Shown here: piece by piece, positions 37,748 through 60,900 of the stretch
How the letters are laid out: every line of letters starts with the position of its first letter
Position numbering within the stretch: the first letter of the stretch is position 1
NCBI GenBank assembly: GCA_032718475.1
Contig: JAUCBJ010006851.1
Span: 15,985-79,984 of the forward strand
Direction of reading: 5' to 3'
Source: Nemertoderma westbladi
Lineage: Eukaryota; Animalia; Xenacoelomorpha
Length of the DNA stretch: 64,000 bases
The notes under the pieces: model-generated
The model's input: the letters and a program-made list of their open reading frames with translations, nothing else
The model's database searches: none
Told to the model about the DNA's origin: nothing
Position numbers and translations under genes: made by a program

Positions 37748-37870
37748 AAAATATAAGTTCTTACTAAATATAAATCTTACTAAATATAAATCTTACTAAA
37801 TATAAATCTTACTAAATATAAATCTTACTAAATATAAATCTTACTAAATATAAATCTTACTAAATATAAG
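37748..37870. repeat. 16-bp tandem repeat in BEL-C 3' UTR
   Basis: aaatataaatcttact, about 6 copies. Confidence 0.9.
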
Positions 37871-37978
37871 TTCTTCCAGAATACAAACTTACTAATTAAA
37901 TATAAAACATATAATTCAAATAAATCACAAATTCACAAGAAAGGCTCACGAGTCTTCCGTCCACCCTTGCCCTCCCTT

Positions 37979-40380: not shown

Positions 40381-43300
40381 TTATTTACTAGTATTAGGTG
40401 GAGATTTGTAGTCTCCAGACTCGTTACGAGTCTCTTCAAGAAGTACGAGACGTTGAGTCGGTCTGTCAACTGTACGACCGTCAATTGTCCGTACCGTCAC
40501 AGTTCTTGTCACTCCATCCATAGATGGATGTGTGTCTAAAATTACACCTGTTATCCAGAAGCGTCTTTTTAGATTCACTTCTGCTAACAGCACGTGATCT
40601 CCCGGCTTTAATGCGCGGGTGTTATTGTACCATGTTGTTCTGGCAGAAATAGAGGGCAAATAATGGTTTTGCCATATTTCCCAGAATTTGTTAGCCAGTA
40701 GTTGCGTGATTTTCCACGCTTTTCTACCGTAGCTATCGCTTTCTATTGGAATAGAAATAGGCGTCAATGTGGTCGGTGCCTGCATAAGCAGGTGTGCCGG
40801 TGTTAAAGCAAACTGAGATTGTTTGTCATCGGGTACTAATACTATTGGTCTAGTATTTAGTAGTATTGCCTCGATTTCAACAAACAGTGTTGTCAGTTGG
40901 TCGTCTGTCAATATGTGGTTTACTGGAATGACCTTTGCCATTGCCGTTTTGATAGATCTAATCAGTCTCTCCCAGACTCCGCCTCTCCATGGACTATCTG
41001 GAGGATTAAACTTCCAAACAATCTTGTGAGGTTGTAGTTCGTTTGAGATTTGATCATGATCTAATTTCTTAAAGGCTCTAGCAATCTCATTTCGAGCACC
41101 AACAAAGTTTGTCCCTTGGTCTGAGTACAAGCATTTCACTAGTCCACGTCTAGCGATAAATTGCCGCAATGCTAGTATAAACGCGTTGGTGGAAAGATCC
41201 ATCACACGTTCAATATGAACTGCCCTACTGGACATACATGTGAAAATCAGTCCCCAGCGTTTTACTAGTATACGTCCACGTTTCGTATGTATGGGACCAA
41301 AGCAATCAATTCCAGTCTCTGTAAAAGGTGGTCTGAATGCTTGAAGTCGTGCTTGTGGAAGTTCACTCATTTCTTGGGTACCTATTCTAGAATGTACCTT
41401 TTTACAAATAATACACGTACGTGTCACTGAACTTAACGCTTTACTGGGTCTAATTAATACAAATCTTGTACGTAAGTAGGAAAGACAGTGGTGTCTTCCA
41501 GCGTGTTTCAGATGTAAATGTGCGTCCAGTATCATTGCACGTTGTAGTTCGTGATGTTGCGGTATTATTATTGGGTATCTAAAGTTTGTGTTAAAGTCAA
41601 TGTTTTGAAGCCGAGATTTATGACAAATTAAGCCATTATAAATAATCGGACTCCAACTCAGTATTGGTGACGACTTGATTGGTTGACCTTGATTTATAGA
41701 TGTGAATTCGCGTGCGAAATATCGCAGTTGGTAATGGCAAATTAATTTAATCTCACACCTGTCAATCTCAGCCAATGTAAGTCGACGTGTAAAGTCGCGT
41801 TTGCCTTTAACGTATTGTACAAAACGTACAATCCACGCTAATTTTCGGCAAGCGTTTGTCCAAGAGTCTGTTAAGTTTACAATACGGTCGACGTAAGTAT
41901 TTGTGACGTCATCAGGTAAGTCAATGGAGATTTTGGAAGGTTTTGATTTACTAGAAGGGCCCACGGGTCCGCCGGTAGGTATTCCCTTGTTGACTGTTGA
42001 TCCGTCCGGGTCTACAAGTAATTTGTCCTTCTTCGTCTTCTTACCTTGATTGTCAGTACTTTGTAAGTCGATCGTTAATGGTGGTTTGAACTCTATGGGG
42101 TCACTGGGTTTCGGTAAACTTAATTTTCTGCCGACATTAATCCCAGGTTTCACCATAGGTTGCAAGTTTGGTATGTCTCTTGAGCGCAGAGTAACACCTG
42201 TATTTACATTAGCGTAGGTACTACCCACATCTGTAATACATGAGGTTTCACCGTGCTTGTGGTTGCTCAAGTGTGTCAAAATTGGTAGTTTGTCAATACA
42301 AGGCCGCTCCAATAGGGAAACTGCGGCTTCACTATTTGTCGGTATGTTACTAGTGTCTGGTAGAACATTGTGTGACATGTCTGGTAAAATGTTTCGCGGA
42401 ACATCCGGCGAAATATCTAGTGACGTGTCTGGCAAAACGTCTGGTTGACCGTCTAGTAACGTGTCTGGCGATACGTCTGGTAACGTATCTGGTTGTTTGT
42501 CAATAGAAGGCCGCTCCAATAGGGAAACTGCGGCTTTACTATTTGTCAATATGTTACTAGCGTCTGGTAGAACATTTTGTGACATGTCTGGTAAAATGTC
42601 TGGTTGGCTGTCTAGTAACGTGTCTGGTTGACCGTCTGGCGATATGTCTGGTGTAGAAAGGCTCGCAAGTCTTCCTCTCTTGACCTTTGAAGTTATATCC
42701 TTCCATTTCGCCTTCGGTTTCTTCTTGAGTTTAGCCGCCAACGTCTTTTTCTTTGCCTTCCCCTTTTTTGGTTTCTTGATTTCGGCGTCCTTAGGGATGG
42801 TGTTAGACTTGTTGTCGTATAACGGTGGCCAATCTTGTGTCGATTTCTGCAAGAATTGGGGTCCGTGTTGCCAAAATTCTTTGTTTTCCGGTTTACAGAA
42901 TTCCTCAGGCATCATTCCTCGCGATGCAATATCGGCTGGGTTTTGTGGTCCGGGACAATGTCGCCAATCTTCTTTTATTGAACGGTCTAGAATTTCTGCG
43001 CGACGGTTAGCTACGAATGTCTTGAATTCAAGTGTGTCGTTGTTTATGTAAAATAAAACCAACGTCGCGTCAGTCCAATAAAATATCTGTAAACTTGACT
43101 GTAGTTCTGTCTGTATAAGGTTCACGATGGTGGTTGACAGTGTTGCGGCTTGTAGCTCAGCTCGTGGTGTCGTCATATACTTAGTAGGCATTGTTTTTGC
43201 CTTAGAAGTAATGAGCGAAACATCGAATTCTTCTGAGTCTACTTGTCTGCGCAAGTACGCTGCCACACCAAAACCGTTGTCACTGGCGTCAGAAAAACAA

Positions 43301-46300
43301 TGTAATTCCAAGTTGTCAGGAAACGTTGTTTGTAATGGAAAGTAGACTCTGGGTATGGAATAATCCTCTAGCGAAGATAATTCTGCCTCCCAGGTCTTCC
43401 ATAAGTCCACTTGGTCTGATGAGATCGGCTCGTCCCATGTCAGTCCATCCTTCCAAATACTGCGCATATAAATGCGGGCTTGCAGTATTATTGGACTGAT
43501 GAATCCTAATGGATCGAACAATCGGCTCAATTTTGACAAGCATGATCTCTTTGTCAGTGTGTTTTCTTGACTGTCCAGTCTCACCTTTACTCGAAAGTTG
43601 TCCGTGTTTGGGTCCCAAAAGAGTCCCAACACCTTGGTCGTCGGTAGTGGTTCGAACTCTAGGTCTATGTCACCATCTCCACGCTCAGTCGTTCCGAATG
43701 AGTCTACTAATTCGGCACTGTTTGAGGCGAATTTGGTGAGGTTAAAACCTCCGCCCGCTAAGCAGTCCCGTAATTGATGTGCTACTGTTGTAGCACGTTC
43801 TACTGTGTCGCAACTCTGTAATCCGTCGTCGACGTAAAAGTCACGTTCCACAATCCTAATTATCTCTGGGTCATACATGTGTTTCTGATCCCTAGCGGCT
43901 TGTTTTAGGGCGTACATCGTACAGTTTGGGCTGTCCCTGGCACCGAAAACGCGAACTTGCATTTGGTAAGTCGCCGGTGGTAGACTTAAGTCTCCTTCCG
44001 GATACCAGAGGAACCTCAAACTGTCTCTGTCTTGCTCTAACGCTCTCACTTGGTGAAACATAGCTTCAACGTCACAAGTAAAGGCTACTTGACGCTGACG
44101 GAAGCGCATAATCACCCCCATAAGATAATTATTCATGTTTGGTCCATCCATCAACTCGCTATTGAGGGACATTCCCTCAAACAGAGCCGCACAGTCATTG
44201 ACTACACGTACTTTGTCTGGTTTGTCGAGGTGTCTCACATAGTGATGTGGCAGGTAGTATGTCTGGTTAGTCACTATCTCTGGGTTAGTCATTCGGATAG
44301 CGTATCCCTTAGTCAAATACGTCTCCATCTGAGTGTTGTACTGCAGATGGGCTTTCTCGTCCTTTAATAGACGTTGCCGTATTGAGTGTAGACGTCTTAA
44401 AGCTAGTGGGTAGTTATTTATAAGTTTAGGACTTTGGCTACGCCATAACATCCCCACCTCATAATGTCCGTCCTTCGTCTGGCGGATAGTATCTTCCATG
44501 ATCTTCAAAGATTGTTTCTCCTGTTCCGACATACATGGTTCGTAGCTACCAGGTTCAGCTGTATCTTGTTCTAACCACCTGATAGTCTTCTCCGTTAATT
44601 CTTTGTCCAATGCAGCTTGTTCCACTTGATGATTTCTCAACGCTTCATCATCGATATCGACGGGCATTGTTGAGGTTATTGGGGTAGGTAGACTCGCAAG
44701 CCTTCCGGCGTTATCATCTGTCGTCGATGGAATCTCTAGCTGACTCGTCTTCTCCCCAAGTTCTAAACTCACCTGGTGGATTAGCTGCTCCTTGTGACTT
44801 ATCATACTAGTTACACGTCTGTCATGTTTTGTATGTAAGGTAGTATGGTCCACGTCGTGTGAAAAGGAATGAATTGAATTTGTAGTTAATAAACTACATG
44901 TACTTTGTACATCGTCTTCCTCGTCACTTATGTCCAGTGTGCGCACAGGCGCTCGAGTATACCACCCTATCGGCGTTCTACAGGCGTATGCGTTTCCCGC
45001 TACGATTGCCGATGGTCTGGTTTTCCACACTTGATGTAGGTTGAATTGGTCTGTCCCGATCAGCATTGCTACCGATCTATAATTGACAGGACATTCAGGT
45101 ACACCAAGGTGTCTGAAATACTTACGGTCCTCCAAGGATTGTTCTGGGACAGGACCTAGTAGGTTACTAAAGTCTTTTGTGGCCGCAAAAGTCAAATCCT
45201 TGAAGGGTAACAAAGACCTCTCCTTTTCGCTGTGTTGCGATTTTGGAAGAAGAGTGTCTAAGTTTAACTTAACTCGTGTCACTGGTATTGCACGTTGTCC
45301 GTGCATACTACTCACGGTGTAACTGACGCGCTTACCTTGTCTGAGATCCGTCACTACATCAGCTATCTGCTCATCCACGTAGCTGTGAGATGAGGCTGAA
45401 TCCAGGATAGCGTAGATTCTCTTGCTCCCCTTTGTGCCAGTAATCTTCATCGGAATTACACTGAATCCCTTTAGTTGGTCAGTCGTCAGAAGCGCGATCG
45501 ATGGTTGTTCGTCTCCATCAGAATATACGTCGTCGTCTTCTGACTCTTCGTCCGACGATCCGGATTGTTCTGAGAAGCAATCCTTAATATGTGTCACAAA
45601 GGTCGGAGTCGTTTTCGATTCTCGATTTTTGTAGGCCGCATTACATCTCGCTGCTGCTTCCGGTTGTTCCCTGGCGAAGCGTTTTGTCGGTGTGTGGCTG
45701 TCTGTGTGGAGCAGACCGTCGTGGTTGCGTCCACAGGATGGACAAGTGTCGGTATTTGGGCAATCCTTGCGAACGTGTCCGTGTCGCGTACACCGCCAAC
45801 AAGAGTCCAATGGCCGTATCTGCAGCCGTCGTTCTTCCGAGTTTAACTCGCGAAACTGTCGACAACCTCTCAACTTGTGACCGATAAACCGCTTACCTAG
45901 ATGCTCGCAGTATTGGCAGCCGCTGAAGTCGGTACTGAGTTGCTGTCTCGTCTGTTTTGTCCCAATGGGCGCAGATACCCTACTACCGTCCGAGAATTGT
46001 CGTGATTCCGTCGGTGTGGCGTAAGTGGCCGTCTTGGTGGATGTTGTCTGGGGTTTTTGTCGGTTTGAGGATGGCAAGGTGATTCCTTCTGCCACGATGT
46101 GCTGGTCAGTGTAGTTGGATCGAGTTTCTACCACTGCCTCCCTGGATATCAAAAGGTACACATCCTCCAGTTTTAAGAATCCACCCCGCTCTTCCCGCTG
46201 GTATTCGATCTTTCTCCACTCCCGACGAAGTCGATGGTGGAGTCGTCCTATGATCTTTAATAGGACTGTAGGGGTATTCCCGTAGTCAAGTTGTCCAATG

Positions 46301-49209
46301 GATCTCAAAGTAGTGATAGCGTTCTTTATCTCGTCAGCCAGTTTTAATAAGTCGACGGGTTTAGTGATAGCCCCTCCCTTACAGAGTTCCTCTATCACTG
46401 ACCTGGCCATGCTGACTGTACCTCCGTATATCGAAGTTAAACGATCGTACGCTAGTTCGAAAGCGTCCGGTACACCAACGAAGGTCTCCGCCAAACGTTT
46501 AGGTTCTCCTGACAACGTTTGAAGCAGGTAATTAAACTTCTCCCGTGATGTAAAGGCGCACACGGCGATCTGAGATTCGATATAGTCTACGAAAGTGTGC
46601 CAGTGTTTTGAGCTACTGGAAAACTTCGGTGGTTGTTGTACCGGCAATCCTTGTCTGGCTGCGAATTTCGCTATCTCCTCGGCCACGTTCAAAGTTTCGC
46701 GTCCTTGGTTGGCAATCGAGTTGATGTTCTCTCGTCTTGGCGCTTTTCCTTGATACGAGGTGTTTCTCGAAGGTATTGGTCTTTGCGGATCCTTCGGGTG
46801 GCTATTGTGTTCAAATTCGGTGTTCCTCGAACTATCGGTTTCAACTTCCTCCAAGCGTTCCTCAATCTGGGCCAACTTATTGACAACTGGTCGCAGAATG
46901 TCGGCGAATTGTTGTGTACTGATCGCGTCTGTTGGTTGTAACGCCTTTTGTGTTGGTGTATTCTGTGGAGGATTGTCGATAAATGAATTATCCGAACGCT
47001 CACGTTTACATTTGTCGGCCGCTCCTGTTCTAAATACCTCGCATTCCGGGTAATCCGACTCGCTCGAAGTACTACTGTCACCTGGATACGGTGGTCGACG
47101 TGCTCGAGTCCGTTGCGCCGTTCGAATCCTAACATTCCGTTTTGGAACATCGTCTACTGGTTTCCGTTGTTCGGTAGGCTCGCAGGTCTTCCTCGAAGTC
47201 GTAGATTGCGATGTAAACTGATTAAACGGTCGCGTATCCACTGGTCTCCGTTGCTCGGTAGGCTCGCAGGTCTTCCTCGAAGTCGTAGATTGCGATGTAA
47301 ACTGATTAAACGGTCGCGTATCCACTGGTCTCCGTTGCTCGGTAGGCTCACAAGTCTTCCTCGAAGTCGTAGATTGCGATGTAAACTGATTAAACGGTCG
47401 CGTATCCACTGGTCTCCGTTGCTCGGTAGGCTCACAAGTCTTCCTCGAAGTCGTAGATTGCGATGTAAACTGAACCGGTGGTCGAGTGACAGCGTTTGAA
47501 TCTAAAGGCCTTGTAGGCCTAAACGTCATTGGGTAAGCGTAGTGTGTAACGGGTTTAGGTGTCGACGGTGGACTCACCTGTTTAGTCGTCAGTAATACAG
47601 GTTCGACTAATAAACTACTACGATCTGTAATCAGCGGGTTACTTACCTTGACTTTCGGAATAGGCGATGACGTTGCTCTTGGCGGTGTAAACTTGTCCGG
47701 AATAACAAACCTGTGTTCCGTCGCACCATGGATAGGAGAAATATTACTACTACCAGCAATCGAAACAGGTTCCTTTGTCGTAACCGGTGCAAACATAGGA
47801 GTTACTTTAGGAAATCTTTGACATAAGTCTTTAACTAATTGTCGTTCTCGTCCAGGTGCTCCTATCGAACCTTCCTTCATTCGTTCCTGAATTTGGCGGT
47901 GCCTTACCTCTATCTGGTCTAAATCATGTCCGTCTCGAGATCTCATCGATCGATCGCGGGCTTGTAGATCCAGATCTTCCTTGGCGTTGGCTAATTCTCT
48001 CGCCTTCTTCTCGAGTTCGAAACGAAGTTTAACTTCTTTCTCGCGTTGTTCCGTTTGTTGTTGTTGCGCCTCGAACTCTGCTTGTCGTATAGCTGACTGA
48101 GCCTTTATTTGCCGTGTTTTCATTTCGGTTCTCGCTTCTGAAGCTAGCCTTTGTCGCTCTAACTCGGCCGCAGCTGTTCGTTGCGCTAACTCGGCCGCTG
48201 CCGCTTGTTGTGCAATGTCCAACTCTAACCTTTCCACTTCGGCTGCTTCCAACTCAGCTTGTTCTTGCAGATGAGAAATTCTCGCAACATTTGCGACGCG
48301 TAGTTTCTCTTCCTCTACAGCTGCTTGTAACGTCAATAACTGAGTTTGTTCCTCGATTTCTCGTTGTTGTCTGTAGAGCTGCTGTTGTCGAGCAATTTCT
48401 GACGTAGCCATACTCACCTCGCCAATTTCGCTGCGAATACTCACCAGTGATTGATTTAGTGTTCCCGGTGCCAGTTCGATTTGTGCGAGCGAAGTTTCCC
48501 TCGTAGCCTCCGGCACGGTTTCCCAATCTCCGACGTCCTCGCCGCACATGCGTAAGTGATCTGTCAGGTGTTTCAATTGTCCATCTAGCCTATACAGTTC
48601 CTGTTCTTCCTCGGGTTGTAATAATTCGTCCGAAACTGACTCACCTAACAACTGGTCCGCTTGTTCCTGTTGTATCTGCCTAATCGTCGACTTAAACTGA
48701 ATCAGTTTCTCTCTAGCGATCATTAGTTTCTCGAGGATTCTAAGCTGAGTGTCCATATCCTGTCTCTGTCTAGCTAGATCTTGTAGACCAATTAGGTTAT
48801 CTACGGACTTATATACTTTACTCTGTACTCTCACCTGTAGAGTGTAGAACTTGAACCGAGACATCGGAGCGGTTAACTCGTCTAATATGCGTTGGCCTTC
48901 TCCAATACTCCTGGTAATATGCGCCATGTAACCGCCGACGCTTCTAACCACACTCTCCTGGCTTCCTACTGAACTTACCATGTGCGTTTCCCTATATCTA
49001 GGTTGCGGAACAGTTAGAAAGTCCTCGGTCCTGCCGTCGCCTCGTACTACGGCATCCGGTACTCCCGTTGGATGTACTGGTGACGCACACGGTGTAGGTT
49101 CGGTAGGCTCGCGAGTCTTCCCCTGTTGTTCTTCCGCTGCTGACTTATCCGCGTCACATGAGTCATAGTCGGTAGGTGTATTCTTCGTATAGTCTTGTTT
49201 GTCACTCAT
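40381..49209 (-). CDS. BEL-C Gag-Pol polyprotein (2942 aa)
   Basis: Gag knuckles (CQYCEH, CWRCTRHGH, CPSCGRNH), ILDSAS protease, FYVDD RT, LHCFSDAS RNase H, HHCC and GIDCFGP/YSDQG/VWERL integrase. Confidence 0.97.
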   Translation of the reverse strand: MSDKQDYTKNTPTDYDSCDADKSAAEEQQGKTREPTEPTPCASPVHPTGVPDAVVRGDGRTEDFLTVPQPRYRETHMVSSVGSQESVVRSVGGYMAHITRSIGEGQRILDELTAPMSRFKFYTLQVRVQSKVYKSVDNLIGLQDLARQRQDMDTQLRILEKLMIAREKLIQFKSTIRQIQQEQADQLLGESVSDELLQPEEEQELYRLDGQLKHLTDHLRMCGEDVGDWETVPEATRETSLAQIELAPGTLNQSLVSIRSEIGEVSMATSEIARQQQLYRQQREIEEQTQLLTLQAAVEEEKLRVANVARISHLQEQAELEAAEVERLELDIAQQAAAAELAQRTAAAELERQRLASEARTEMKTRQIKAQSAIRQAEFEAQQQQTEQREKEVKLRFELEKKARELANAKEDLDLQARDRSMRSRDGHDLDQIEVRHRQIQERMKEGSIGAPGRERQLVKDLCQRFPKVTPMFAPVTTKEPVSIAGSSNISPIHGATEHRFVIPDKFTPPRATSSPIPKVKVSNPLITDRSSLLVEPVLLTTKQVSPPSTPKPVTHYAYPMTFRPTRPLDSNAVTRPPVQFTSQSTTSRKTCEPTEQRRPVDTRPFNQFTSQSTTSRKTCEPTEQRRPVDTRPFNQFTSQSTTSRKTCEPTEQRRPVDTRPFNQFTSQSTTSRKTCEPTEQRKPVDDVPKRNVRIRTAQRTRARRPPYPGDSSTSSESDYPECEVFRTGAADKCKRERSDNSFIDNPPQNTPTQKALQPTDAISTQQFADILRPVVNKLAQIEERLEEVETDSSRNTEFEHNSHPKDPQRPIPSRNTSYQGKAPRRENINSIANQGRETLNVAEEIAKFAARQGLPVQQPPKFSSSSKHWHTFVDYIESQIAVCAFTSREKFNYLLQTLSGEPKRLAETFVGVPDAFELAYDRLTSIYGGTVSMARSVIEELCKGGAITKPVDLLKLADEIKNAITTLRSIGQLDYGNTPTVLLKIIGRLHHRLRREWRKIEYQREERGGFLKLEDVYLLISREAVVETRSNYTDQHIVAEGITLPSSNRQKPQTTSTKTATYATPTESRQFSDGSRVSAPIGTKQTRQQLSTDFSGCQYCEHLGKRFIGHKLRGCRQFRELNSEERRLQIRPLDSCWRCTRHGHVRKDCPNTDTCPSCGRNHDGLLHTDSHTPTKRFAREQPEAAARCNAAYKNRESKTTPTFVTHIKDCFSEQSGSSDEESEDDDVYSDGDEQPSIALLTTDQLKGFSVIPMKITGTKGSKRIYAILDSASSHSYVDEQIADVVTDLRQGKRVSYTVSSMHGQRAIPVTRVKLNLDTLLPKSQHSEKERSLLPFKDLTFAATKDFSNLLGPVPEQSLEDRKYFRHLGVPECPVNYRSVAMLIGTDQFNLHQVWKTRPSAIVAGNAYACRTPIGWYTRAPVRTLDISDEEDDVQSTCSLLTTNSIHSFSHDVDHTTLHTKHDRRVTSMISHKEQLIHQVSLELGEKTSQLEIPSTTDDNAGRLASLPTPITSTMPVDIDDEALRNHQVEQAALDKELTEKTIRWLEQDTAEPGSYEPCMSEQEKQSLKIMEDTIRQTKDGHYEVGMLWRSQSPKLINNYPLALRRLHSIRQRLLKDEKAHLQYNTQMETYLTKGYAIRMTNPEIVTNQTYYLPHHYVRHLDKPDKVRVVNDCAALFEGMSLNSELMDGPNMNNYLMGVIMRFRQRQVAFTCDVEAMFHQVRALEQDRDSLRFLWYPEGDLSLPPATYQMQVRVFGARDSPNCTMYALKQAARDQKHMYDPEIIRIVERDFYVDDGLQSCDTVERATTVAHQLRDCLAGGGFNLTKFASNSAELVDSFGTTERGDGDIDLEFEPLPTTKVLGLFWDPNTDNFRVKVRLDSQENTLTKRSCLSKLSRLFDPLGFISPIILQARIYMRSIWKDGLTWDEPISSDQVDLWKTWEAELSSLEDYSIPRVYFPLQTTFPDNLELHCFSDASDNGFGVAAYLRRQVDSEEFDVSLITSKAKTMPTKYMTTPRAELQAATLSTTIVNLIQTELQSSLQIFYWTDATLVLFYINNDTLEFKTFVANRRAEILDRSIKEDWRHCPGPQNPADIASRGMMPEEFCKPENKEFWQHGPQFLQKSTQDWPPLYDNKSNTIPKDAEIKKPKKGKAKKKTLAAKLKKKPKAKWKDITSKVKRGRLASLSTPDISPDGQPDTLLDSQPDILPDMSQNVLPDASNILTNSKAAVSLLERPSIDKQPDTLPDVSPDTLLDGQPDVLPDTSLDISPDVPRNILPDMSHNVLPDTSNIPTNSEAAVSLLERPCIDKLPILTHLSNHKHGETSCITDVGSTYANVNTGVTLRSRDIPNLQPMVKPGINVGRKLSLPKPSDPIEFKPPLTIDLQSTDNQGKKTKKDKLLVDPDGSTVNKGIPTGGPVGPSSKSKPSKISIDLPDDVTNTYVDRIVNLTDSWTNACRKLAWIVRFVQYVKGKRDFTRRLTLAEIDRCEIKLICHYQLRYFAREFTSINQGQPIKSSPILSWSPIIYNGLICHKSRLQNIDFNTNFRYPIIIPQHHELQRAMILDAHLHLKHAGRHHCLSYLRTRFVLIRPSKALSSVTRTCIICKKVHSRIGTQEMSELPQARLQAFRPPFTETGIDCFGPIHTKRGRILVKRWGLIFTCMSSRAVHIERVMDLSTNAFILALRQFIARRGLVKCLYSDQGTNFVGARNEIARAFKKLDHDQISNELQPHKIVWKFNPPDSPWRGGVWERLIRSIKTAMAKVIPVNHILTDDQLTTLFVEIEAILLNTRPIVLVPDDKQSQFALTPAHLLMQAPTTLTPISIPIESDSYGRKAWKITQLLANKFWEIWQNHYLPSISARTTWYNNTRALKPGDHVLLAEVNLKRRFWITGVILDTHPSMDGVTRTVTVRTIDGRTVDRPTQRLVLLEETRNESGDYKSPPNTSK
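47150..47475. repeat. 84-bp in-frame tandem repeat (x~4) in BEL-C gag
   Basis: QFTSQSTTSRKTCEPTEQRRPVDTRPFN repeated. Confidence 0.92.
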
Positions 49210-51499
49210 TTCGGTAGTTGTAAGTCAAGTAAAGTGAGTGTCAAAGTATCAAACTTACCGTTTTTTATCTAAACGGTACTAATTACAGTCATATAAAATT
49301 AGCCTACCGGCCGATTTTATAGCAGATGGATAAAATTAGCCTAGACGGCCAATTTTACAGCAAATAAATGTCACGGAATAAGTATATAATAAAATTAGCC
49401 TAGCGGCCAATTTTATAACAAATAAATTGGATAACGATATGCGTTATCAAAAGGTAAATTAAATACAATAATACGGACTAATTCAGCAATGAACAAAGAA
49501 ATCATACGGAATGCATAAATACTTGAGACAGTGGAACCCACAATAATTTTAACTAATACGGTAATGCCTAACTTATTTATGCAACTTTTCAAACTCACCC
49601 ACTCCAATTATTCTCCAGAAAAACAGATTCCCAGATACAAACCGAACGTGAACCTTTCCGTTTCCAGCGTTGCGGACGAAGCGCGATTTTCCCAACCAAA
49701 GTTGTTGAGTTATCTATCTCCCAAACTTGCTAAACACGGTCTTGCTCCCGTTACAGTCTAGAAATGAGTTCTGAATCCTGAAAAACAAAAGAGTTAGGTC
49801 AGTAGGTTTTACTTTACGAAATTTTGTACCGGTACAATATGGTATTTAAACCCTTTTTTAAACACCGGTATTCAATTCCAAAAATAATTTTACACGCGGT
49901 TCAAATCAAATTTTATTTCAAAATATTAGCACTTAGCTAATCAAATATAAATTTTTACCTCAAAATACAAAATTTTCAAATAACTTTAGTCCTACCGAAC
50001 CGTAGTTCAGTAAAACACATTCCTACTATTCGAAGAGACGGTAACAATACCTGCAATATCCTACTGTAAAGTTTGTGAATCAAATCATAAATCCGACCTT
50101 CTCACCAAAACAGTAAACTCTAAGTAAGCGAATATATTGCAGTATCGATCTCTTATAACCGGTGAGGCAGAAAACAGTCTACGAGCAGACAAACTTCGAT
50201 AAAACAAAATCCCGCGCAGCGAATCCTAAAATCAGGCTGACTCACTGACGGACTAAAGGGCTCGTATACTTTGCCGCGGTGTGATTTATATGGTTGGGCG
50301 AAAGGGACGCTAGCTAGGTACAGAGGCAGAGATTTGGAGATGTCTAACTAGCGGGCAAAGCACAGTACGGACAAAAGTTAATTTTATATATTTTGAGGTG
50401 TAAATAATTTCTAACGCGCGTGTTAATTCTGAACGGTCAAAGCAGTTTTGCTCCTTCACATATATAATTACTGGGTACGGTGTGCATTTTACGAATATTC
50501 TAATTTTGTAACTTGTAGGTCCAATACTCACGAATGATAAGGTTCCTTCCCCTCTTGCGTATTTCCAGGACTCAAATTCAGGCATAAGGTTAATGCTACG
50601 CCCAGAATTCGGCAATTTTAATTTACCAGGCCCCTAATACTAAGAAGAAATGTGTTAGTTTACTACAGTAGGCGTACGGTTACAAATAGCTATCCTGGCG
50701 TCCTATCTAGAATTTTAGTCACCTAGGTAGGCTGGGTAACTTCCTATCAAGACGTTGGCGGGGACACGGTAGATGTTAGTATATCCCTAATAGCCTCAAT
50801 TTATTTTCGCCTAGCCGTAAACTGCCCTACCGCCTGAACGGTACAATCCCAATTCAGGTGAAACACAGCAACCCTCCTAGCCTACAAGTTCTAATGCAAT
50901 GGACACCGTTGCACTACAAATAGTCACAGACGCACCTGTACTTAGCAAGAGTTAGGCGTACAGTTTGCTGCACCCTACCAATGTGTATTCTTTGTACCGG
51001 TGTGCCCACGTCCTATCTGCGTACTAGTATCTCTGCCTGCTCTCTCCCCCCCGTAGGAATGTGAAGGTCTACTGTGGTTTTTTCCTGAATTAAGACAGTA
51101 CAGTCCCTAAGATGTAATTTTAGGCTCACAGCGTGTCACTACTTCTACCTTTTGATCTTTGGTCTTACGCTTAGGTAGCAAGGCGTCGAACGCTGTCTAA
51201 CCTTTCAGGCGATGGGCGAATAACTGAGATGATATTGCGGGTTGTCTCTTGTCTACATTCCCGTGATGTTCCCGTTCATTGCTACGGCCCGATCTCTAGC
51301 CGGCCATCCTGTTCTTAAAGGTGTTCACCGTAGTGAATCATGATGAAAAGAAAAGGCAGGTAGCGGTATTTCTGAATTTATTGCAGATAATAATACAAAA
51401 TGTAATCTGAAAACTAATGACAGAATAAACAAATATCAGATAACTCAGAATAATTGTGTAAGTGAAGAGTGAAAATTAGATAACTAATGAACAAATCGC

Positions 51500-51652
51500 A
51501 CCTTTATATACTAAATTTGTGCTGCAATCAATCGAGAAAATTCTCGATTGTTCTATAGGTTCTAACAGGTTTTTAAAGATAGCTATTGGTCCAGCTAATA
51601 TATAACTTGTACGACATTGGTTACAATCAAATAACTACAGTCTCATTGGTTA
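51500..51652 (-). promoter_or_regulatory. BEL-C LTR Pol II promoter (three CCAAT boxes plus TATATAAAGG)
   Basis: Plus-strand attggt at about 51586, 51616 and 51646 (30-bp spacing) upstream of cctttatata at 51501-51510. Confidence 0.6.
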
Positions 51653-51717
51653 ATCTAGGTACAAACAAATGCAATTTAATTTGTAGCGGTTAATTTAAAT
51701 GTGTTGAAATTCTGTAC

Positions 51718-51804
51718 AAAAAATAATTCGCACTTACTAGGATTCGAACTCAATACCTACTACACATATAATTTCCAACGCTCTACCAACTGAGCTACTG
51801 AACC
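51718..51804 (-). ncRNA. tRNA-like Pol III unit in the BEL-C 5' LTR
   Basis: Identical copy of 36984-37070. Confidence 0.6.
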
Positions 51805-53271
51805 ACTTGAATAATAGGCGTACAAATAGAAATAGCAATACAAATGAGGACTCAATGTAATCTTTTACAAAGTTAATTCGAATAAAAATAAAATTTTGAA
51901 AATCCACGGCATTTAGGGAATATAATTCTATATTGTACACCAACATTAAGATTATTACTACAGGGTAAAATATTATTTCCTGCAAGAAAGGTTTGATTAG
52001 TATTAGGGTTATCTATTACGGTACTATTAATATTATCTCCACTAAACGTATTATTATTATTACCCCCCCCTCCCCCCCGCCCGTACAGTCACACCAGTCT
52101 TGGGTCTGTCGTCCGGTACCTGTAAGTGGGGTATTAACAAAGGTTTCCGTCACCTCTGGTTCCTCATAAATACTACCCGAACCAGCCTCGCTCTCTGATA
52201 AACCCATTTTGCCAGTTCTAACCGGCGCTTTTGCTTCGCTTGATACTGCATTAACCCCTCAACTGGGTATGCATATCATCCCGCAAGTGTTTGCCCACCC
52301 TCTCTCTTTCTCTATCCTTCCTCATACTCTGGTCGGCCAATTCTGCCTCCCTCGCCTCCTGCTCTCTATGCTCGTTCACCTCCCTCTCAATTCTCTCAGC
52401 CTCCCACACCTTGCGCTTGTTTTCCACTCTCGCCTCCCACTCCTTGCGCTCTTTATGCTCGTTCATCTCTCTCTTAATTCTCTCAGCCTCCCGCACCTTG
52501 CGCTCGTTTCCACTCTCGCCTCCCGCTCCTCGTGCTCTTTACGCTCATTCATCTCTCTCTCCTCCTGCTCCCTACAGTTTCTCGCCACCCTCTCAGCCCT
52601 CTCTTTACACTCTCTCGCTAATTCTCTCTCCCTCTCTAGCAACGCGGTTCCCTCGTCCAGCTGCCTTTCTAGTTCCTTTTGATCCAGTGCAACAATGTCT
52701 AGTTGACACGCCAGATCTATCTCTAACACCCTTCTTGCTTTCACGGAGGATGTAGCGGACTTTTCGGTTGCGACGGACTCCCGTCGCCTGTCTGTCCTAC
52801 TAATTTTCCCCCGTTTGCTGGGGTTCCTACTAACCGACGACACCGAATCCTCGGGATTAACCTCGGATTTGCCATCGTGCGGGTCTGCACATCCCACTAA
52901 CTTAATCCCCCTCGCATCCACTAAGTAAGGCCCTATGTACACTACATCCACCTCCACCACCTCGGATCGCCACAATTCAAACAGTTCTGTAGCGACCCCC
53001 TCGCCCTCTCACTCGCCAGTTCTCCCTGTCCAAATCGGACTAAATAACGGAAATGTTTGTTGCACTCACCTAGCCTCTGATATAGTTTAGGATGGTCTAC
53101 CTTTCTCCCTTCCTTAGCCTCCTTTAGCATCCTCTTTGTGGCGTTGTAGGCCCAGTCGCAGGCGATCACTCGTCACGACATCTTCCTCGTTGACTCCACC
53201 TTCCCTCCTCGTCCGGCGCCGTACCGTTGGCCCCACCGTCGCCGTTCCGGTGGGCCGTTCGTCGTCGTCAT

Positions 53272-56200
53272 TTGATGTTCTTCCACCGCGATCAATACTC
53301 TAGTGAGTACGGCTCCAGGAAGAATTAGAAGTGGATCTGGATAAACCGCTTCTGTCATCCTTGCTCCGATCTCGGGTGTCAACTCTACAGTGTCTGAACT
53401 ACTGGAGTTATCGGGCCACTGAGAAATAAGTTCTCGGGTCGGGTGCTGCTGCTGTTTAACAGCTGCCTCTTGGTGCCACTTGACTTGAGCCCTAGTGCCT
53501 ATGATAGATCTATGGTGCTTTACTAGCCTAGGGTCTGATACTACTACTGTAGGGATGACCTTTCTTACAGTAGGACTTGGACTTACAGGGGACTTGGACT
53601 TCGGTCTCAGATGTTCTATACTCTTTTCTGAGTCACAGACTGTTCTTTCTAGAAGACTATCTGACAGTGTTTGCTTTGTGTCAGCCATGATTTATTTTAC
53701 AGTTGAATGCCTACTACTATGACGACAGTTAAAGCAAGTCTAGTAATTCAGTATCAACTATAAGCCTAGTAATTAATTACCGATACCGTTACTCAGTGTA
53801 ACATGATATATATAATATATTAAAATACCGGTATACTTATAGTATATATATAAGTATTATTGCAGACTATAATTAGTCACAAAATACCGGTATATAATTT
53901 CAGCCTAAATTTATATAAATAAATATAATAAGCCTACCGTAAATACCGGTAATGTTAATTATTTTATGATAACTGACTTTCTGAATTTTAGGGTTACTTC
54001 CCCTTTACTTGTTACTGTTATTAAGCAGTAGTCCAACTGATATTACGACCTAATTGATGTATAACAGGCCTACTATTTTATATATCGGTTTGAGTTAATT
54101 TATAATATATTATGTACCCGTACAAGGGTTTTTGACAATATTTGAAATAAATGTTATTATTTCTAGATAAGGAGTCACTACACAGAATCTGAACGCTCTC
54201 AGTGGAGTGCTACTTGTTGGACACTAAAATGAATAATTCTACTTTACTAAGTTACTTGTCACTACAAATTACTTACAATTACAGTTTGAGATTACAATCT
54301 CTAATAATAAACACTAAAAAGTTACACGTACAATTTATTAGGGTAATTTTACAAGAAATCTACAAACCAGCTTAACAAGGAGTTCGAATTTCTGGTTCTT
54401 ACAAACTGACAGGAAACTACGGTATTTGAAAACAATAAAGCAGTAGTAAGTAAATTGCGTTGTCCAGATAAGAAAATACCACCATCTGACGACTTATAGT
54501 CTTAGCTCTATAAGTACTACGTTATGTACCCGGAGTGTCCTTACCTAGAGGTTAATTACTGCAGCCAACCAGAGCTAACGTGCCTATTAACCACGTTACA
54601 ACACAAATATACTGCCTACACTAAATTACTTTTGGAAAGCACTGTACACTAAACCCTAAATTAGGTACAAGTACTTATACAACAAATAACCAGCAGTTAA
54701 ATATACTTGAACAGCCAAAAGAACCACGGTATCTGCTGGAGTGACCGGAGCACAAAATCACCAGTCTTTACCTACGCCAAGCAGCCCTGATGTAGTACCG
54801 GGGTTAATTTAACTATAACGGTATGTATAACAAGCACAATTACTGTAGGAATAACCTTGGGGAGTTGGTGGTTGCGAATACTCGCATAGACTCTGAATAA
54901 TAAATATTACGCTACCCGTGCAGACTGTACAAACAAAATACAGACCAAATGCTGGCAGACTACTGGCAAGCCTAAATAAACTACAGTATATGCAGACTCC
55001 AAAATGGTTAGTTAGTAGGCGTTCTAACCGAGTAGTACGACTTATTCTTTCGGGGGGATTTACCTTACAACACTGGATGCCCCCACCTTCCTAACTAGCA
55101 CTTTATCGGACAGACACTCTACACACACTGCAATCGCTTCAGACCTAACAACAGTCAGACAACAATCCGGCCTACAAATTATTTATACAATCTGAGCAGG
55201 CTTACACGCCTTCTGCTCAATATTACACTTACAGATAAATAAAACTGACAGAAATAAGTAAACCATACAAAGGAATAAGGGGTGATCAATCCCTAATCCC
55301 CTAACAGCCTACAATATACAATATTTCACAATCGAAATAATACTAGTACCAGCAAGTACCGGTTCGGGTGGTTGGGCAGTTAGACCTACAGTTTACCGTC
55401 CGACCGGTATATTCTAATTTATTGCCTACGTGCAATCAAGAAATTATAAAAACTATTCATGTTCTTACCAGAACAATAGACAAAATATATTTATTGCCTA
55501 CTGTGCAATAAAGAACAAAATCTATTATTGTTCGCGCTTTTAGACCTTTAGCAGTTTAACCTGCCAATTTTAGTTGTCTTCTTGTTTATAAATCGACTTT
55601 AGCCTAGATCAATGATTTAATGTACTGAAGTTACATCCGCCGAAGCCAGTCTGTGCGCGATCATTCACCCACAGTTAAGGGAGACTGGATTCGGGTGCTT
55701 TGAAAGTTATTGCAGTGCAGACCTACTGTATTATTGATTGATCGTTACTATATAATCTCTGACAATATATTTACTTTCGGGGAAATATTAACAGTTCCTT
55801 TAGGACGTGGCGCTTTAAGTATAAAAACAGAGTTATGACTTATACTAATCACAACTAGATGGCCATAGAGTTTCGTAAATAGCGCATTGTTTAGGAGATG
55901 CTTTATTATCTGTCACACTACTTCACACGACTTCACACTACTTCACACTGATCTGCCAACCGTCACTGAATTTGATCATATATAAGGAGAATTACAAATG
56001 ACACAAGTAGGGATTATGAAATAGCATTTGATTCACCCAAAACCACTATAATGTAAGTCGCAATGCTACCGGTAACCTGTTCCTCTCACCTTCAGTAATC
56101 AAGAAGATTGGGGGTTTTGTGATTATTCATCGGTATTCTCCAAATATATCAGCAATATACATCAATATAACAACAATTAATAACAGAAGTAAAATAATGC

Positions 56201-56361
56201 GGTGAACAGTCAGTATGTGTTTTAGTGCTCCAGGTTCGTGGTTGGTCAGTTAAGATAGTTCTTCAGTGTTGCTTCAGATAATAGATTTACGTTCTTATAA
56301 TCAAAGCCATCAGATGTTTAGGCCAAAGTCTGAAACTTCCAAAATCAGAAGTACAGAAGAT
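53272..56361 (-). mobile_element. BEL-D: 5' portion of a BEL-A-family element (gag start, leader, LTR start)
   Basis: MADTKQTLSDSL...IAVEEHQ is homologous to BEL-A MSDTRQNLSDSL...IAVEEHQ; the 2.7-kb leader is colinear with 7443-10500; interrupted by Copia at 56362. Confidence 0.88.
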
Positions 56362-59300
56362 TGTTAGAAATATATGTTTCTCCAAGTCGAATCCACTGTT
56401 TTTAATAAAAAACTTCCAACATCATACGTTGCAGTATTAAGTAAATATAGTCAGTTATATATGAAATACAAACAATCATTACCGGTACCGCAACCCAACA
56501 CCAAAAACACAATATGACAGAACAGCCTAACGGTACTACTGCAGAACCAGACGGTAGGAGTCAGACAGTCAGATGATAGATAAAGGGTTCAATATAAAAG
56601 GGCGTTAGATGATTTCCAACACTCCCACTCGTCGTCAGCCCATGATCATCTGATAAAAGTGCAAATTATACTGACGATTTCACATTCCCACTAACTCGTC
56701 AATATATTTAAACGAGAGTCATCATTTTTGTTCTAAACTCAATGAATTTCTCCTTTGAAAGAGGCTTTGTCATTATATCTGCAATCATGTTGTTCGATGA
56801 GCAGTGTTCTAAAGTAACAAGTTTTTTATTCACCATATCTCGAACAAAGTGATGTTTTATTTCAATATGTTTAGTTCTCCCATGAAATCGATGATCTTTC
56901 GAAAGAGCAATACATCCATTATTATCCTCATATAGTGTGGTAGATTTCCCTTGTTCAAACCCTAAGTCTTTCAAGAGAGTCCTCAACCATACCAGTTCTC
57001 TCGTGGCCAAACTCGCTGCTATGTATTCAGCTTCTGTAGTACTTTGTGCTACGGTTGATTGTTTTTTACAACTCCATGAGATTAATGAATTGTTTATAAA
57101 GAATAAGAACCCTGACATAGACTTTCGGTCATAGTTCCGACCCCAGTCGGCATCTACATAACCAACAAGTTTTGCAATATTAACTTTAGATGATACAAAT
57201 TCCACACCGATGTCTGGTGTCCCTTTGATGTATCGAAGTATCCTTTTCACAGCTACCCAGTGTTCATTCCCAGGATTAGAACAGAATTGATTAACGCTGC
57301 TGAGAGATGCAGCAATGTCTGGTCGGGTAGCACTTACAATGTAATTTAGAGCGCCTATAGCCGCCTGATAACTTCTTTTGTCAACCGGATCACCCTCATT
57401 AGGGGACAAAGTAATACTAGGGTCAATGGGTGTTGAAACAGAGTTACAATTTTCCATTCCAAAACACTTCAATATATTTTCAAGATAGCTCCTTTGAGAT
57501 AACTTCATGCTGCCATTACTTCTGTTTCTGTCAATCTTTATACCTAAACACCATGTGGCTTCGCCAATGTCCTTCATCTGAAATCGCTTTTTCAGTAAAT
57601 CCTTTTCTCCAATCAGCATAGTAATGTCATTAGATGCCATCAATAAGTCGTCAACGTATAGAGCTAAGATCATAAAGTTGTCTCCAATGTGTTTGATGTA
57701 AATGCAAGGATCAGAATCCGATTGTATGTATCCAGATCCCTTAAGGTGATCATCCATTACTTGATACCAACATCGAGAGGCTTGTTTCAATCCATAAATA
57801 CTCTTGTGAAGTTTACATACCAAGTTCTCATTTCCTTCCTTGATAAATCCATCTGGTTGTTTCATAAAGATCTCTTCCTCCAGTACACCATTCAGGAAGG
57901 CTGTCTCAACATCCATTTGGTGTAGTTCTAAGTTATACTCATTCACAAGAGCTAGTATTGTACGAATAGAGGTACAGCGTGCAACTGGTGCAAACGTTTC
58001 TTGATAATCCAAATTGGGCTGTTGAGTGAAGCCCTGAGCTACAAGCCGCGCTTTGTAGCGTATGACTTCTCCATTAGAATCTTTCTTTTCTTTAAAAGTC
58101 CATTTACTACCAACTACTGTTCTACCTTCTGGTAATTCAACTAAAGACCAGGTTTTGTTGTTGGTTAACGAGTTATATTCATTTTCTATTGCTGATTTCC
58201 ATTGGTCACTCGAATCACCTTCCAGTGCTTCATTTATGGTTCTTGGCTCCATGGATACTGAGAAAACCATATTATCAAATTCATCTCCCTCAATCCACTC
58301 ACCATATCTGTCTGGCAGTTTTCTAACTCTTGACGACTTCCTCACTTCAGGCACTGTTTTTGATTTGTCATTTACTTTCTCAGTCCTCATTACAGGCTCA
58401 GTTTCTAACTTATAATTTAATTTGTCATTTACTTTCTCAGTCCTCATTTCAGGCTCAGTTTCTAACTTGTAATTTACTTTCCCAGTAACGATTACTGGAG
58501 CAACTGGGACCACTATATCATCAATAGCAGTATTGTCAAAACACTTTGACTCTATCTCATGTTTGATGTGGGATATACGATCTCCAAAGCTGTGTTCATC
58601 GAACCTAACATCACGACTAACAAATACACGCCTTGTGTGTGGGTCATATACTCTATAACCTTTCTTTTCACCATCATAACCTATGAAGATGTGTCTCTCA
58701 CTCTTAGGATCCCACTTCTTTCTTTTCTGACTTGGGACGTGAACCCATGCATCACACCCAAAGACCTTAAAGTCTGAAACTGATGGTTTTTTGCCATAGA
58801 AACATTCATATGGAACTTGATTCGTAACAGCTTTTGTTAAACATCGATTATTAATATATACAGAAACCAAAACTGATTCAGCCCAGAATGAGATCGGCAG
58901 CCCGGCATATTCTATCATAGATCTACCTGATTCAACTAAGGTCCTATTCTTTCTCTCTGCAACTCCATTTTGTTGTGGGGAGTATCTTACAGTCACCTGT
59001 TTGCGAATGCCCTTCTGCTTCAAGAAATTGTCAAAATCATTATTTAAATACTCTCCACCATTGTCAAAGCGAATCACTTTAATATTTTTATCTGTCTGTC
59101 TCTCAGCCATTTGTATAAATTCAACGAATTTCTCCATAACTTCACATTTTTCCTTCATAAAATAGACTCCACAGAACCTTGACTTATCGTCTATGAATGT
59201 GACAAAATATCTATTTCCGCCATTTGATGCCTTTGACATTGGCCCGCAGACATCAGAGTGGACAAGTTCAAGAACATCAGATGCCCTTGAATTACTTGTT

Positions 59301-60900
59301 TTTGGAAATGGATTTCTTGTCTGCTTTCCTAGAACACACCCCTCACAAAAGTTCAGTTTGTCCTCAACGTTAATATCTAAGCCATTGACGCAGTCATCTT
59401 TAAACATAATTTTTAGTGTCTGTTCATTAACGTGTCCTAAACGGCGATGCCATATGTCCAAAGTTGATGCAGAATATACAAAGTTCTCATTATTATTTGG
59501 AACTTTAATTACAGAACCGTCAAGTTCGTACTGGTTACCATTTTCTCGTATCTGTGCAATGGCTAGCAGTTTATCATTAAATCTATCGAAAATTTCACAT
59601 TTTCTCAGGTTAAATATGACACATGAATTGTGTTCAGTAATTCGTTTCACAGATAACAAATTTTGACTCAAATTTGTTACAAACAATACGTTTTCAAATA
59701 CACAGTTTCCCCTTTTATTAGGATTTTCCCACTTTACTTTACCTTTCCCTAATGCCTCAACAGTCTCACCATTTGCCAGATGAACAACCTGAGATTGACT
59801 GAATTCGCAATACTCGTCAAAATAATCTAATTTACAACACATATGTTGTGTTGCGCCAGAATCAATGAACCATTTAATCGAATTGTCATCACTATTTGTA
59901 AGTAATGTAGAAGACCAAAATGTACATGAGTCAGTTGAATAAGTTAGGTTCACATTTGATTTAAGGGTTGGTTGTTCTGGAAAATTATTTGATCTACAAT
60001 ATTTTGCTATATGACCAAGTTTACCACAGTTAAAACATTTAGCGGGTCTAAAATTTCCACCACTGTAACTATTTCTTTGGTTGCCAAAATTGTTGCCTAT
60101 ATTGTAGTTGCTGTTATTGAATCCACGATTCCCACTAAATCCTCGTTGTTGGTGTTGCTGGACACCAGAGACTGATAAGTTTCTAGTTTGGCTCAGCAAT
60201 GCATCATTTTCTCCATTTTCAGGCTTTTTGGACTCTATTCTCTTTTGCTCTACCATTAACAGTTTTTGACGGAGGTACTCAAGTGTGAGATTATCATTCA
60301 TTTCTAGGGTATTAACTAAATTGTCAAAGGGTTCAGGTAAACTTAGCAGCAACTCCCACACCTGCTCGATTTCTGAAACTTCAGCCCCTATCGCCGCTAA
60401 TTGAGTTGCCAATTCTTGGTGTTTATTTATATGAGATAACATGTCGCCACCATCACACAATCTCGCATTGCGGTATTTCCGTTTAAGGAATATGATGTTT
60501 TGCATTGTTCTCATTTCGTACTGTTTCTTTAATGCGTCCCATGCATCTTTTGCAGTGAGTTTTCCTATAACTAATGGCAACTGAGGGTCACACAGATGTA
60601 GGCTAATTTCAGCCCGCGCTTTTGAATCTCTTTTATTGAATTTTTGAAGTGCCTCTCCACCACTTTCTGGGGCAACTTCTTCACCTATCACGATTTCCCA
60701 TAAATCCAAAGAAATCAACACCATCTGTATTTTATGTTTCCACATAAACCAATTCGTGCCGTTAAATTTATCTGTGCGCAACCCAACTTTATATTCACTA
60801 GCCATGGCTGATCGATGTACATTTACTTTACTTCAATAAGTGCAGCATATTCCTGCATTCGTTTGCTGATACCGGTATCCAATACTGCAGTCAGTAATAA
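56362..60900 (-). mobile_element. Ty1/Copia LTR retrotransposon (5' LTR not in window; right boundary approximate)
   Basis: 3' LTR 56362-56621 with TGTTAGAAAT...ATTTCCAACA ends; PPT GAGTGGGAG at 56622-56630; intact ORF. Confidence 0.92.
56708..60805 (-). CDS. Copia Gag-Pol (1365 aa, intact)
   Basis: CFNCGKLGHIAKYC, FIDSGAT, WHRRLGH, HSDVCGP, QNGVAER, YKARLVA, LYVDD and YVDADW motifs in PR-IN-RT-RH order. Confidence 0.96.
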   Translation of the reverse strand: MASEYKVGLRTDKFNGTNWFMWKHKIQMVLISLDLWEIVIGEEVAPESGGEALQKFNKRDSKARAEISLHLCDPQLPLVIGKLTAKDAWDALKKQYEMRTMQNIIFLKRKYRNARLCDGGDMLSHINKHQELATQLAAIGAEVSEIEQVWELLLSLPEPFDNLVNTLEMNDNLTLEYLRQKLLMVEQKRIESKKPENGENDALLSQTRNLSVSGVQQHQQRGFSGNRGFNNSNYNIGNNFGNQRNSYSGGNFRPAKCFNCGKLGHIAKYCRSNNFPEQPTLKSNVNLTYSTDSCTFWSSTLLTNSDDNSIKWFIDSGATQHMCCKLDYFDEYCEFSQSQVVHLANGETVEALGKGKVKWENPNKRGNCVFENVLFVTNLSQNLLSVKRITEHNSCVIFNLRKCEIFDRFNDKLLAIAQIRENGNQYELDGSVIKVPNNNENFVYSASTLDIWHRRLGHVNEQTLKIMFKDDCVNGLDINVEDKLNFCEGCVLGKQTRNPFPKTSNSRASDVLELVHSDVCGPMSKASNGGNRYFVTFIDDKSRFCGVYFMKEKCEVMEKFVEFIQMAERQTDKNIKVIRFDNGGEYLNNDFDNFLKQKGIRKQVTVRYSPQQNGVAERKNRTLVESGRSMIEYAGLPISFWAESVLVSVYINNRCLTKAVTNQVPYECFYGKKPSVSDFKVFGCDAWVHVPSQKRKKWDPKSERHIFIGYDGEKKGYRVYDPHTRRVFVSRDVRFDEHSFGDRISHIKHEIESKCFDNTAIDDIVVPVAPVIVTGKVNYKLETEPEMRTEKVNDKLNYKLETEPVMRTEKVNDKSKTVPEVRKSSRVRKLPDRYGEWIEGDEFDNMVFSVSMEPRTINEALEGDSSDQWKSAIENEYNSLTNNKTWSLVELPEGRTVVGSKWTFKEKKDSNGEVIRYKARLVAQGFTQQPNLDYQETFAPVARCTSIRTILALVNEYNLELHQMDVETAFLNGVLEEEIFMKQPDGFIKEGNENLVCKLHKSIYGLKQASRCWYQVMDDHLKGSGYIQSDSDPCIYIKHIGDNFMILALYVDDLLMASNDITMLIGEKDLLKKRFQMKDIGEATWCLGIKIDRNRSNGSMKLSQRSYLENILKCFGMENCNSVSTPIDPSITLSPNEGDPVDKRSYQAAIGALNYIVSATRPDIAASLSSVNQFCSNPGNEHWVAVKRILRYIKGTPDIGVEFVSSKVNIAKLVGYVDADWGRNYDRKSMSGFLFFINNSLISWSCKKQSTVAQSTTEAEYIAASLATRELVWLRTLLKDLGFEQGKSTTLYEDNNGCIALSKDHRFHGRTKHIEIKHHFVRDMVNKKLVTLEHCSSNNMIADIMTKPLSKEKFIEFRTKMMTLV

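Follow-up and report, generated by a model that had tools for sequence, protein, structure and literature searches.

Candidate self-priming in a BEL/Pao retrotransposon branch through pairing of the primer binding site with the element's own LTR, in part across a predicted LTR intron

Structure and classification of BEL-C

The window (the whole 64,000-nt stretch of DNA analysed here, positions 1–64000) is nearly all mobile DNA, with four BEL/Pao elements or fragments (BEL-A to BEL-D), a gypsy element (29568–35112) and a copia element (56708–60832). A tandem array of 15/17-nt units, one half of it inverted, lies at 11500–13400. BEL-C is a 16.6-kb BEL/Pao LTR retrotransposon on the minus strand (35306–51932), with a 5′ LTR of 1906 nt (50027–51932, minus; termini TATAG...GAATA) and a 3′ LTR of 1893 nt (35306–37198, minus) that form a direct repeat of 98.95% identity across 1906 columns in a self-comparison of the window. 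The 5-bp target site duplication TTGTA flanks the element (left copy 35301–35305, right copy 51933–51937, plus strand), and the polypurine tract GGAGCGG, identical in BEL-B, adjoins the 3′ LTR (37199–37205, minus). This duplication and the purine tract bound BEL-C and thus define its LTR edge independently of the pairing described below. The LTRs of both BEL-C and BEL-B have the termini TA...TA, not TG...CA; those of the window gypsy element (29568, 34812) and of two relatives (L001 and L014) start with TG and end with TA.

The gag-pol ORF (40381–49209, minus) runs for 2942 aa from the first ATG with zero stops and encodes DUF1759, zinc knuckles, a protease, a reverse transcriptase (RT) with the motif YVDD, the Pao RNase H region, an integrase zinc finger, an integrase and DUF5641. 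The Pfam domains follow the order PF03564, PF05380 (E 2.6e-42), PF17921 and PF18701, and the overall arrangement is PR-RT-RH-IN. Read from the translation, the catalytic motifs of RT and RNase H are intact and those of the integrase are readable. Gag-Pol is about 1600–2200 aa long in relatives, and in BEL-C it is enlarged by in-frame repeats, three of 84 nt in gag (47153–47473) and a 12-nt-based series in the RNase H-integrase interval (42283–42652). A second ORF between pol and the 3′ LTR (37979–39451, minus; 490 aa from ATG) contains three CCHC-like motifs; its Pfam match to zf-CCHC is weak (E 0.029), and all Atlas leads stay below 0.9. Judging from these motifs, its product could be an RNA chaperone. 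The same weak zinc-knuckle leads leave an envelope gene, which was also considered for this ORF, unsupported.

BEL-C is thus a young BEL/Pao element with an intact ORF, and its membership of BEL/Pao is supported by the Pfam matches and domain order, the two LTRs, the purine tract and the 5-bp duplication. PF05380 was present in all 120 listed homologues (of 475 matches), at 38–44% identity to BEL-C, and the named homologues among the matches listed came from molluscs, echinoderms, corals, a nemertean, a brachiopod, a hemichordate and fish. This host range fits Sinbad/Sailor as outlined in the available parts of PMC6238403 and PMC8220671. A Sinbad/Sailor-like sub-lineage name for BEL-C would be a guess resting on host range, because our tree holds no named reference elements. 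The U3 region of BEL-C also contains a degenerate tRNA-like stretch (51728–51822, minus) with A-box- and B-box-like motifs, reported by ARAGORN only at a lowered threshold and absent from the Rfam matches, which is possibly a captured tRNA-derived repeat or a Pol III promoter.

The BEL-C primer binding site and its complement in the LTR

The putative primer binding site (PBS) of BEL-C comprises the 11 nt at 50016–50026 (minus; CACATTCCTAC on the plus strand, GTAGGAATGTG on the element strand), at offset 0 from the LTR end (50027). An earlier, sequence-only reading had claimed that BEL-C has no tRNA-type PBS and that its LTR contains an exact 11-nt complement of the site, and both statements hold: the 11 nt abut the LTR end and are without TGG, and the complement occupies LTR positions 870–880 (51053–51063, minus; the candidate self-primer site), with a copy in the 3′ LTR (36319–36329, minus). 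We likewise reproduced a stop of the pairing exactly at the LTR edge, where the next pair would oppose G to the last A of the LTR, and a further 7-bp helix, which forms part of the best duplex, includes one G-U pair and has its 5′ arm at 51068–51074 and its 3′ arm in the leader at 50008–50014 (both minus). The G run that the same reading placed behind the primer is present in BEL-C as seven G directly after the primer site (51046–51052, minus); a similar run occurs in BEL-B alone, none of the relatives having one. A G run as a general cleavage signal was accordingly rejected. Further along, 248 nt downstream of the primer site, the motif AATAAA (50800–50805, minus) could, in the 3′ LTR copy, act as a poly(A) signal.

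A PBS-complementary 11-mer was found in one of 5000 dinucleotide-shuffled BEL-C LTRs, or in nine of 5000 if offsets of 0–4 were permitted. Among other start positions in the BEL-C leader, 5 of 791 (0.6%) have an 11-nt LTR complement, and the match in BEL-C alone is therefore suggestive, not decisive. This background is what chance complementarity in an AT-rich LTR would draw upon, with the true PBS lying elsewhere or decayed; against decay, BEL-C is young and its ORF is intact, so that its PBS should be intact as well. The helix has a pair probability of 0.69–0.84 in a 1121-nt fold of the whole stretch between the sites, and it appears in the ensemble and the centroid and is missing from the minimum-energy fold. 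The loop between the paired sites measures 1026 nt, most relatives having far shorter ones. An intron within the BEL-C primer site was considered and rejected, as the site is uninterrupted and splicing would yield at best a pairing of 8 nt. A search with Rfam returned one chance-level match in the LTR region and nothing else, and ARAGORN found zero tRNA genes within the 64-kb window.

Run X4 (labelled 'DNA?') provides hints on the transcript. One of its contigs joins 49777 to 51202 with CT..AC ends, which on the element strand correspond to a canonical intron between a candidate donor GT in the LTR (51200–51201, minus; 138 nt upstream of the primer site) and a candidate acceptor AG following a T tract in the leader (49778–49779, minus; downstream of the PBS). 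The joint is weak, as its short side of 25 letters is below the 31-letter bar. A second X4 contig leaves BEL-C at the same LTR donor, and the partner of this second junction was not found within the window. Taken as a hint, removal of this intron would eliminate the primer site together with the PBS and leave an mRNA for translation only. If X4 is RNA, the transcript would start some 160 nt or more ahead of the BEL-C primer site, and spliced mRNA would coexist with genomic RNA. The weak X4 evidence thus suggests that the primer site may be internal to the transcript and not its first 11 nt.

Own-LTR pairing in other elements and in relatives

BEL-B, whose RT-RNase H region is 40.8% identical to that of BEL-C, has a 602-nt 5′ LTR (27530–28131, minus; termini TATGA...TGATA) and a 3′ LTR at 16127–16728 (minus), the two being 97.3% identical; the flanks agree at 3/5 positions only. 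Its 12-nt PBS, ATAAGAACTTTA (27518–27529, minus), again lies at offset 0, with letters unrelated to those of BEL-C, and is complemented by a candidate self-primer site at LTR positions 169–180 (27952–27963, minus), which is followed by GGG and by 6 further pairs past a 1-nt bulge. None of 5000 shuffles contained the complement of the site, and the pair probability in a whole-stretch fold was 0.54–0.89. A both-strand scan of the window for pairs of 10 nt or more located after TA and before GG produced three matches, namely BEL-B, BEL-C and one on the plus strand that we treated as chance.

BEL-A and the related 5′ fragment BEL-D each have a single LTR in the window, with no second copy to fix where it ends. 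Following a conserved block ending in CA, they carry homologous 11-nt pairs: a candidate PBS at 9672–9682 (minus) after ...GTACA and a candidate self-primer site at 10433–10443 (minus) in BEL-A, and a candidate PBS at 55518–55528 (minus) after ...GAACA and a candidate self-primer site at 56278–56288 (minus) in BEL-D. Three of the 11 pairs are changed on both sides between the two elements, i.e. compensatory. The scan that identified these pairs yielded several further 10–11 nt matches, and the AU-rich helices of BEL-A and BEL-D have probabilities of 0.00–0.01 in whole-region folds. Judging by the letters, BEL-A and BEL-D likely pair with their own LTRs as BEL-C and BEL-B do. Acceptor-like sequences were noted by eye at 10482 and about 56330 (minus), roughly 40 nt upstream of the BEL-A and BEL-D primer sites and conserved between the two, and at 51085–51086 (minus), 21 nt upstream of the BEL-C primer site. 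The families of this host may have an LTR intron that ends just upstream of the primer.

To place these elements among relatives, an alignment of 29 proteins was used, leading to 78 metagenome loci (best 80 of 264 confirmed stretches) and 30 genome-bin loci, 108 in total; no relatives were found in viral contigs. The genome-bin loci (L079–L108) are contigs in prokaryote species genomes that encode BEL/Pao Pol and most likely represent host-animal DNA binned into metagenome-assembled genomes. In 15 of the 108 loci a second LTR copy seemed to fix the 5′ LTR end; L046 and L053 were dropped as unclear and 13 were kept, with the end of L091 set by eye 6 nt beyond the repeat match and that of L093 falling 1 nt short. 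A TGG-type site, which is probably of the tRNA-Tyr type, is present in four of these anchored loci and in none of the remaining nine. The 13 loci together with BEL-B, BEL-C and the window gypsy element formed a test set of 16 elements. The gypsy element has a TGG-type site and no LTR complement of the kind described here.

Nine of the 11 elements without a tRNA-type site pair with their own LTR over 11–15 nt, and the duplex starts 0–4 nt from the LTR end in every one of these cases; TGG is absent from the first 8 nt of all 11 sites. The complement is contiguous in four elements (BEL-C, BEL-B, L001 and L041), and in five (L014, L020, L028, L033 and L091) it exists only across a GT-AG LTR intron with consensus ends, by donor and acceptor rules that were drafted after inspecting these LTRs. 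The two elements that missed the cut-off are L088, which pairs at 8 nt if the acceptor filter is applied and at 11 if the acceptor is chosen by hand, and L082, with one mismatch. By comparison, none of the five tRNA-type elements exceeds 6 nt with its own LTR, and none of 240 swapped site/LTR pairs reaches 10 nt. The relatives therefore show covariation, in that the families differ in their sites and each site matches its own LTR and not those of others. Self-pairing had been put forward for BEL-C; it is present there, as claimed, and it is lineage-wide, many relatives needing predicted splicing to complete it.

These results bear on two alternatives. Chance complementarity is largely refuted and, in our view, extremely improbable, given two independent families at offset 0 in one window and nine of 11 own-LTR matches against none of 240 swaps. 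Alternatively, host tRNA halves or other small-RNA fragments could be the primers, the LTR match being a by-product such as a captured copy of the primer. Priming by half-tRNAs is described for some copia lineages in the available part of PMC6317226, and the tRNA-like stretch in the BEL-C U3 could be counted in favour of this explanation, but that stretch is not the complement of the PBS. Moreover, almost every family has a different AU-rich site, which matches its own LTR only, and a captured copy would not carry an intron with consensus ends. We thus regard priming by tRNA fragments as very unlikely, if somewhat less so than chance.

Larger scans addressed the split sites. Across 74 loci, a loose splice scan returned 30 hits against 22 and 20 in controls, i.e. 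no clear enrichment over a swamping background. With strict rules for splice sites and distances, a junction complement of 11 nt or more occurred in 14 of 62 loci (12 distinct), compared with 0/62 in reversed, 0/62 in complemented and 2/62 in direct controls; because these rules followed the loose result, we take the strict scan as support and not as a blind test. Without anchoring, contiguous matches showed no enrichment (13/62 versus 9, 6 and 13 in controls). Many of the remaining scanned loci have no LTR sequence. A contiguous-only helix test that allowed G-U pairs overlooked the intron-split cases. In the split relatives the predicted cut follows the intron by 5–8 nt. No TATA box was found to precede the primer at a constant spacing, the 160 nt ahead of it being free of TATA matches in all 14 strict-scan loci.

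Two comparisons connect the contiguous and split forms. L016, with a contiguous complement, and L029, in which a 168-nt intron splits it, are sisters with 65% RT identity that have a 7-nt core in common, and three of their paired positions are changed on both sides, i.e. compensatory. The two LTR copies of L041 share 88% identity, and an acceptor in one of them stands at the point from which the other continues into a complete primer site; subfamilies may be mixed in this contig.

A quick tree of 92 RT-RNase H rows with 400 or more aligned residues (midpoint root, SH-aLRT values only, no non-BEL outgroup) placed BEL-A, BEL-B and BEL-C in one branch (99) beside 80 relatives (93), and separated these 83 rows (98) from nine distant ones. 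Split and contiguous forms are interspersed in this tree. A TGG-type site was verified in four of the nine distant rows, and the motif was absent upstream in the other five (L090, L092, L096, L101 and L103); L102 and L108, which are outside the tree, have such a site. Upstream of pol in the 80 relatives the TGG-type motif was found in none, this being the one motif searched and other tRNA types still being possible. Sites of tRNA type were thus seen only in more distant relatives.

A proposed priming mechanism and its relation to known systems

Based on this pairing, we propose that BEL-C primes itself in a manner similar to Tf1, its PBS pairing with its own LTR and its own RNA serving as primer after an RNase H cut, a reading that we consider highly probable. 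The claim of a self-priming, tRNA-independent BEL/Pao lineage is strengthened by covariation and by matches confined to the own LTR, with RNase H cleavage and priming as its predicted steps. The starting point is present in the DNA, where LTR 870–880 complements the 11 nt past the LTR and the 7-bp helix extends the duplex. Genomic RNA would begin upstream of LTR position 870 and fold into this duplex. By analogy with Tf1, RNase H would then cut just 3′ of the duplex, after LTR 880 (predicted between 51053 and 51052), and leave a 3′-OH paired to the first PBS base. From there RT would copy the 1026 nt that separate the LTR end from the cut before jumping to the 3′ LTR copy, so that all sequence upstream of the cut, including the primer site, would be taken from that 3′ copy.

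In many relatives the primer site is interrupted in the DNA by a GT-AG intron and, if this intron is spliced, only spliced RNA can pair. With all sequence upstream of the cut supplied by the 3′ copy, a primer intron would be inherited when that copy is unspliced and lost when it is spliced, the loss giving rise to intron-free forms such as BEL-C. One may speculate that an unspliced 3′ copy would be kept from priming. We think it likely that a large and old BEL/Pao branch of marine animals self-primes without tRNA, that in much of this branch the spliceosome joins two LTR exons into the primer, that splicing thereby licenses reverse transcription with only the 5′ LTR copy priming, and that BEL-A to BEL-D are intron-free members.

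The main alternative is that the pairing is real and conserved but constitutes a regulatory or packaging structure, such as a switch that hides the PBS or a mark of spliced RNA, the primer being a protein or a short LTR RNA supplied in trans. Covariation in DNA demonstrates pairing and not priming, retroviral U5-leader structures occur without self-priming, and the primer site seems, on weak evidence, to be internal to the transcript, unlike that of Tf1. However, a duplex of 11–15 nt lying 0–4 nt from the LTR end has the very place and length required of a primer, an LTR RNA acting in trans would still be an element-encoded primer, and no tRNA site is left to regulate, since the first 8 nt of all 11 sites are without TGG. 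We therefore regard a purely regulatory role as unlikely, though less so than priming by tRNA fragments.

In the ICTV description of Belpaoviridae (PMC8742986), the PBS measures 18 nt and serves host tRNA-Arg or -Gly, the LTRs span 0.2–1.2 kb and the genomes 4–10 kb, and replication is called poorly understood. BEL-C resembles this family (genus Semotivirus) in its Gag-Pol with DUF1759, PF05380 and DUF5641, the PR-RT-RH-IN order, the purine tract and the 5-bp duplication, but differs in that it has no tRNA site, its LTRs measure 1.9 kb and the whole element 16.6 kb, its ends are TA...TA, and it carries an additional ORF. The family trait of a PBS for the 3′ end of a host tRNA is thus lacking in BEL-C; the family is defined by its proteins.

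As far as the available parts of PMC7175516 and PMC4600332 describe it, Tf1 and Tf2 of Schizosaccharomyces pombe and Tj1 of S. japonicus self-prime, with a cut between bases 11 and 12; the part of PMC6317226 available to us predicts self-priming also for Tcn1 and the copia TAR lineage. Like the Tf1/sushi and Tcn1 groups in these accounts, BEL-C has an LTR RNA of about 11 nt complementing the site after the 5′ LTR and no tRNA site. Its Pol is of BEL/Pao and not of Ty3/gypsy chromovirus type, so that the working would be Tf1-like and BEL-C is not a member of Tf1/sushi. The Tf1 primer, in the same accounts, is the first 11 nt of the RNA, whereas the BEL-C site may lie more than 140 nt inside (on weak evidence), with a loop of 1026 nt, and cleavage, demonstrated for Tf1, is predicted for BEL-C. 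An intron-split complement, as in many BEL relatives, is absent from the accounts of Tf1 cited here. The plant Ty1/copia TAR lineage (Houba, Osr-1) shares an LTR complement of 10 nt or more to a site 0–5 nt after the LTR, a signature common to TAR and Tf1 that BEL-C also displays, but it belongs to the copia superfamily of plants, and no intron-built primer is described for it in the portion of PMC6317226 concerned.

Self-priming in BEL-C, probable in our judgement, would accordingly bring a known mechanism into a superfamily that is listed as using tRNA primers, and relatives would have a form of it that depends on splicing. The main texts of PMC3118150, PMC554778 and PMC6238403 contain neither 'PBS' nor 'tRNA', and BEL/Pao self-priming is unmentioned in the available parts of PMC3601003, PMC13524379, PMC5443660 and PMC8220671. 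Among the matches listed, no title or abstract opening concerned BEL/Pao self-priming, the search having been one outside Repbase, GyDB, subscription journals and supplements. If the proposal is correct, the Tf1 trick has been adopted independently three times, in chromoviral gypsy elements, in the copia TAR lineage and here, and it accounts for the missing tRNA site in these BEL elements. A splice-completed primer would tie the start of reverse transcription to host RNA processing and provide a reason for LTR introns. The self-pairing signature itself pinpoints LTR ends and predicts exact RNA cut sites.

Two further observations concern the run contigs. An X4 contig at 50170–50618 shows dense T>C changes in plus-strand terms, which read as A>G in the element's orientation, the run totals being 69 T>C versus 16 A>G places; this resembles A-to-I hyper-editing but may equally reflect a diverged copy. 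Runs X1 and X3 cover 48500–51932 with thousands of short contigs of very high summed depth (depth not being copy number), which suggests a high copy number of the BEL-C family in its host.
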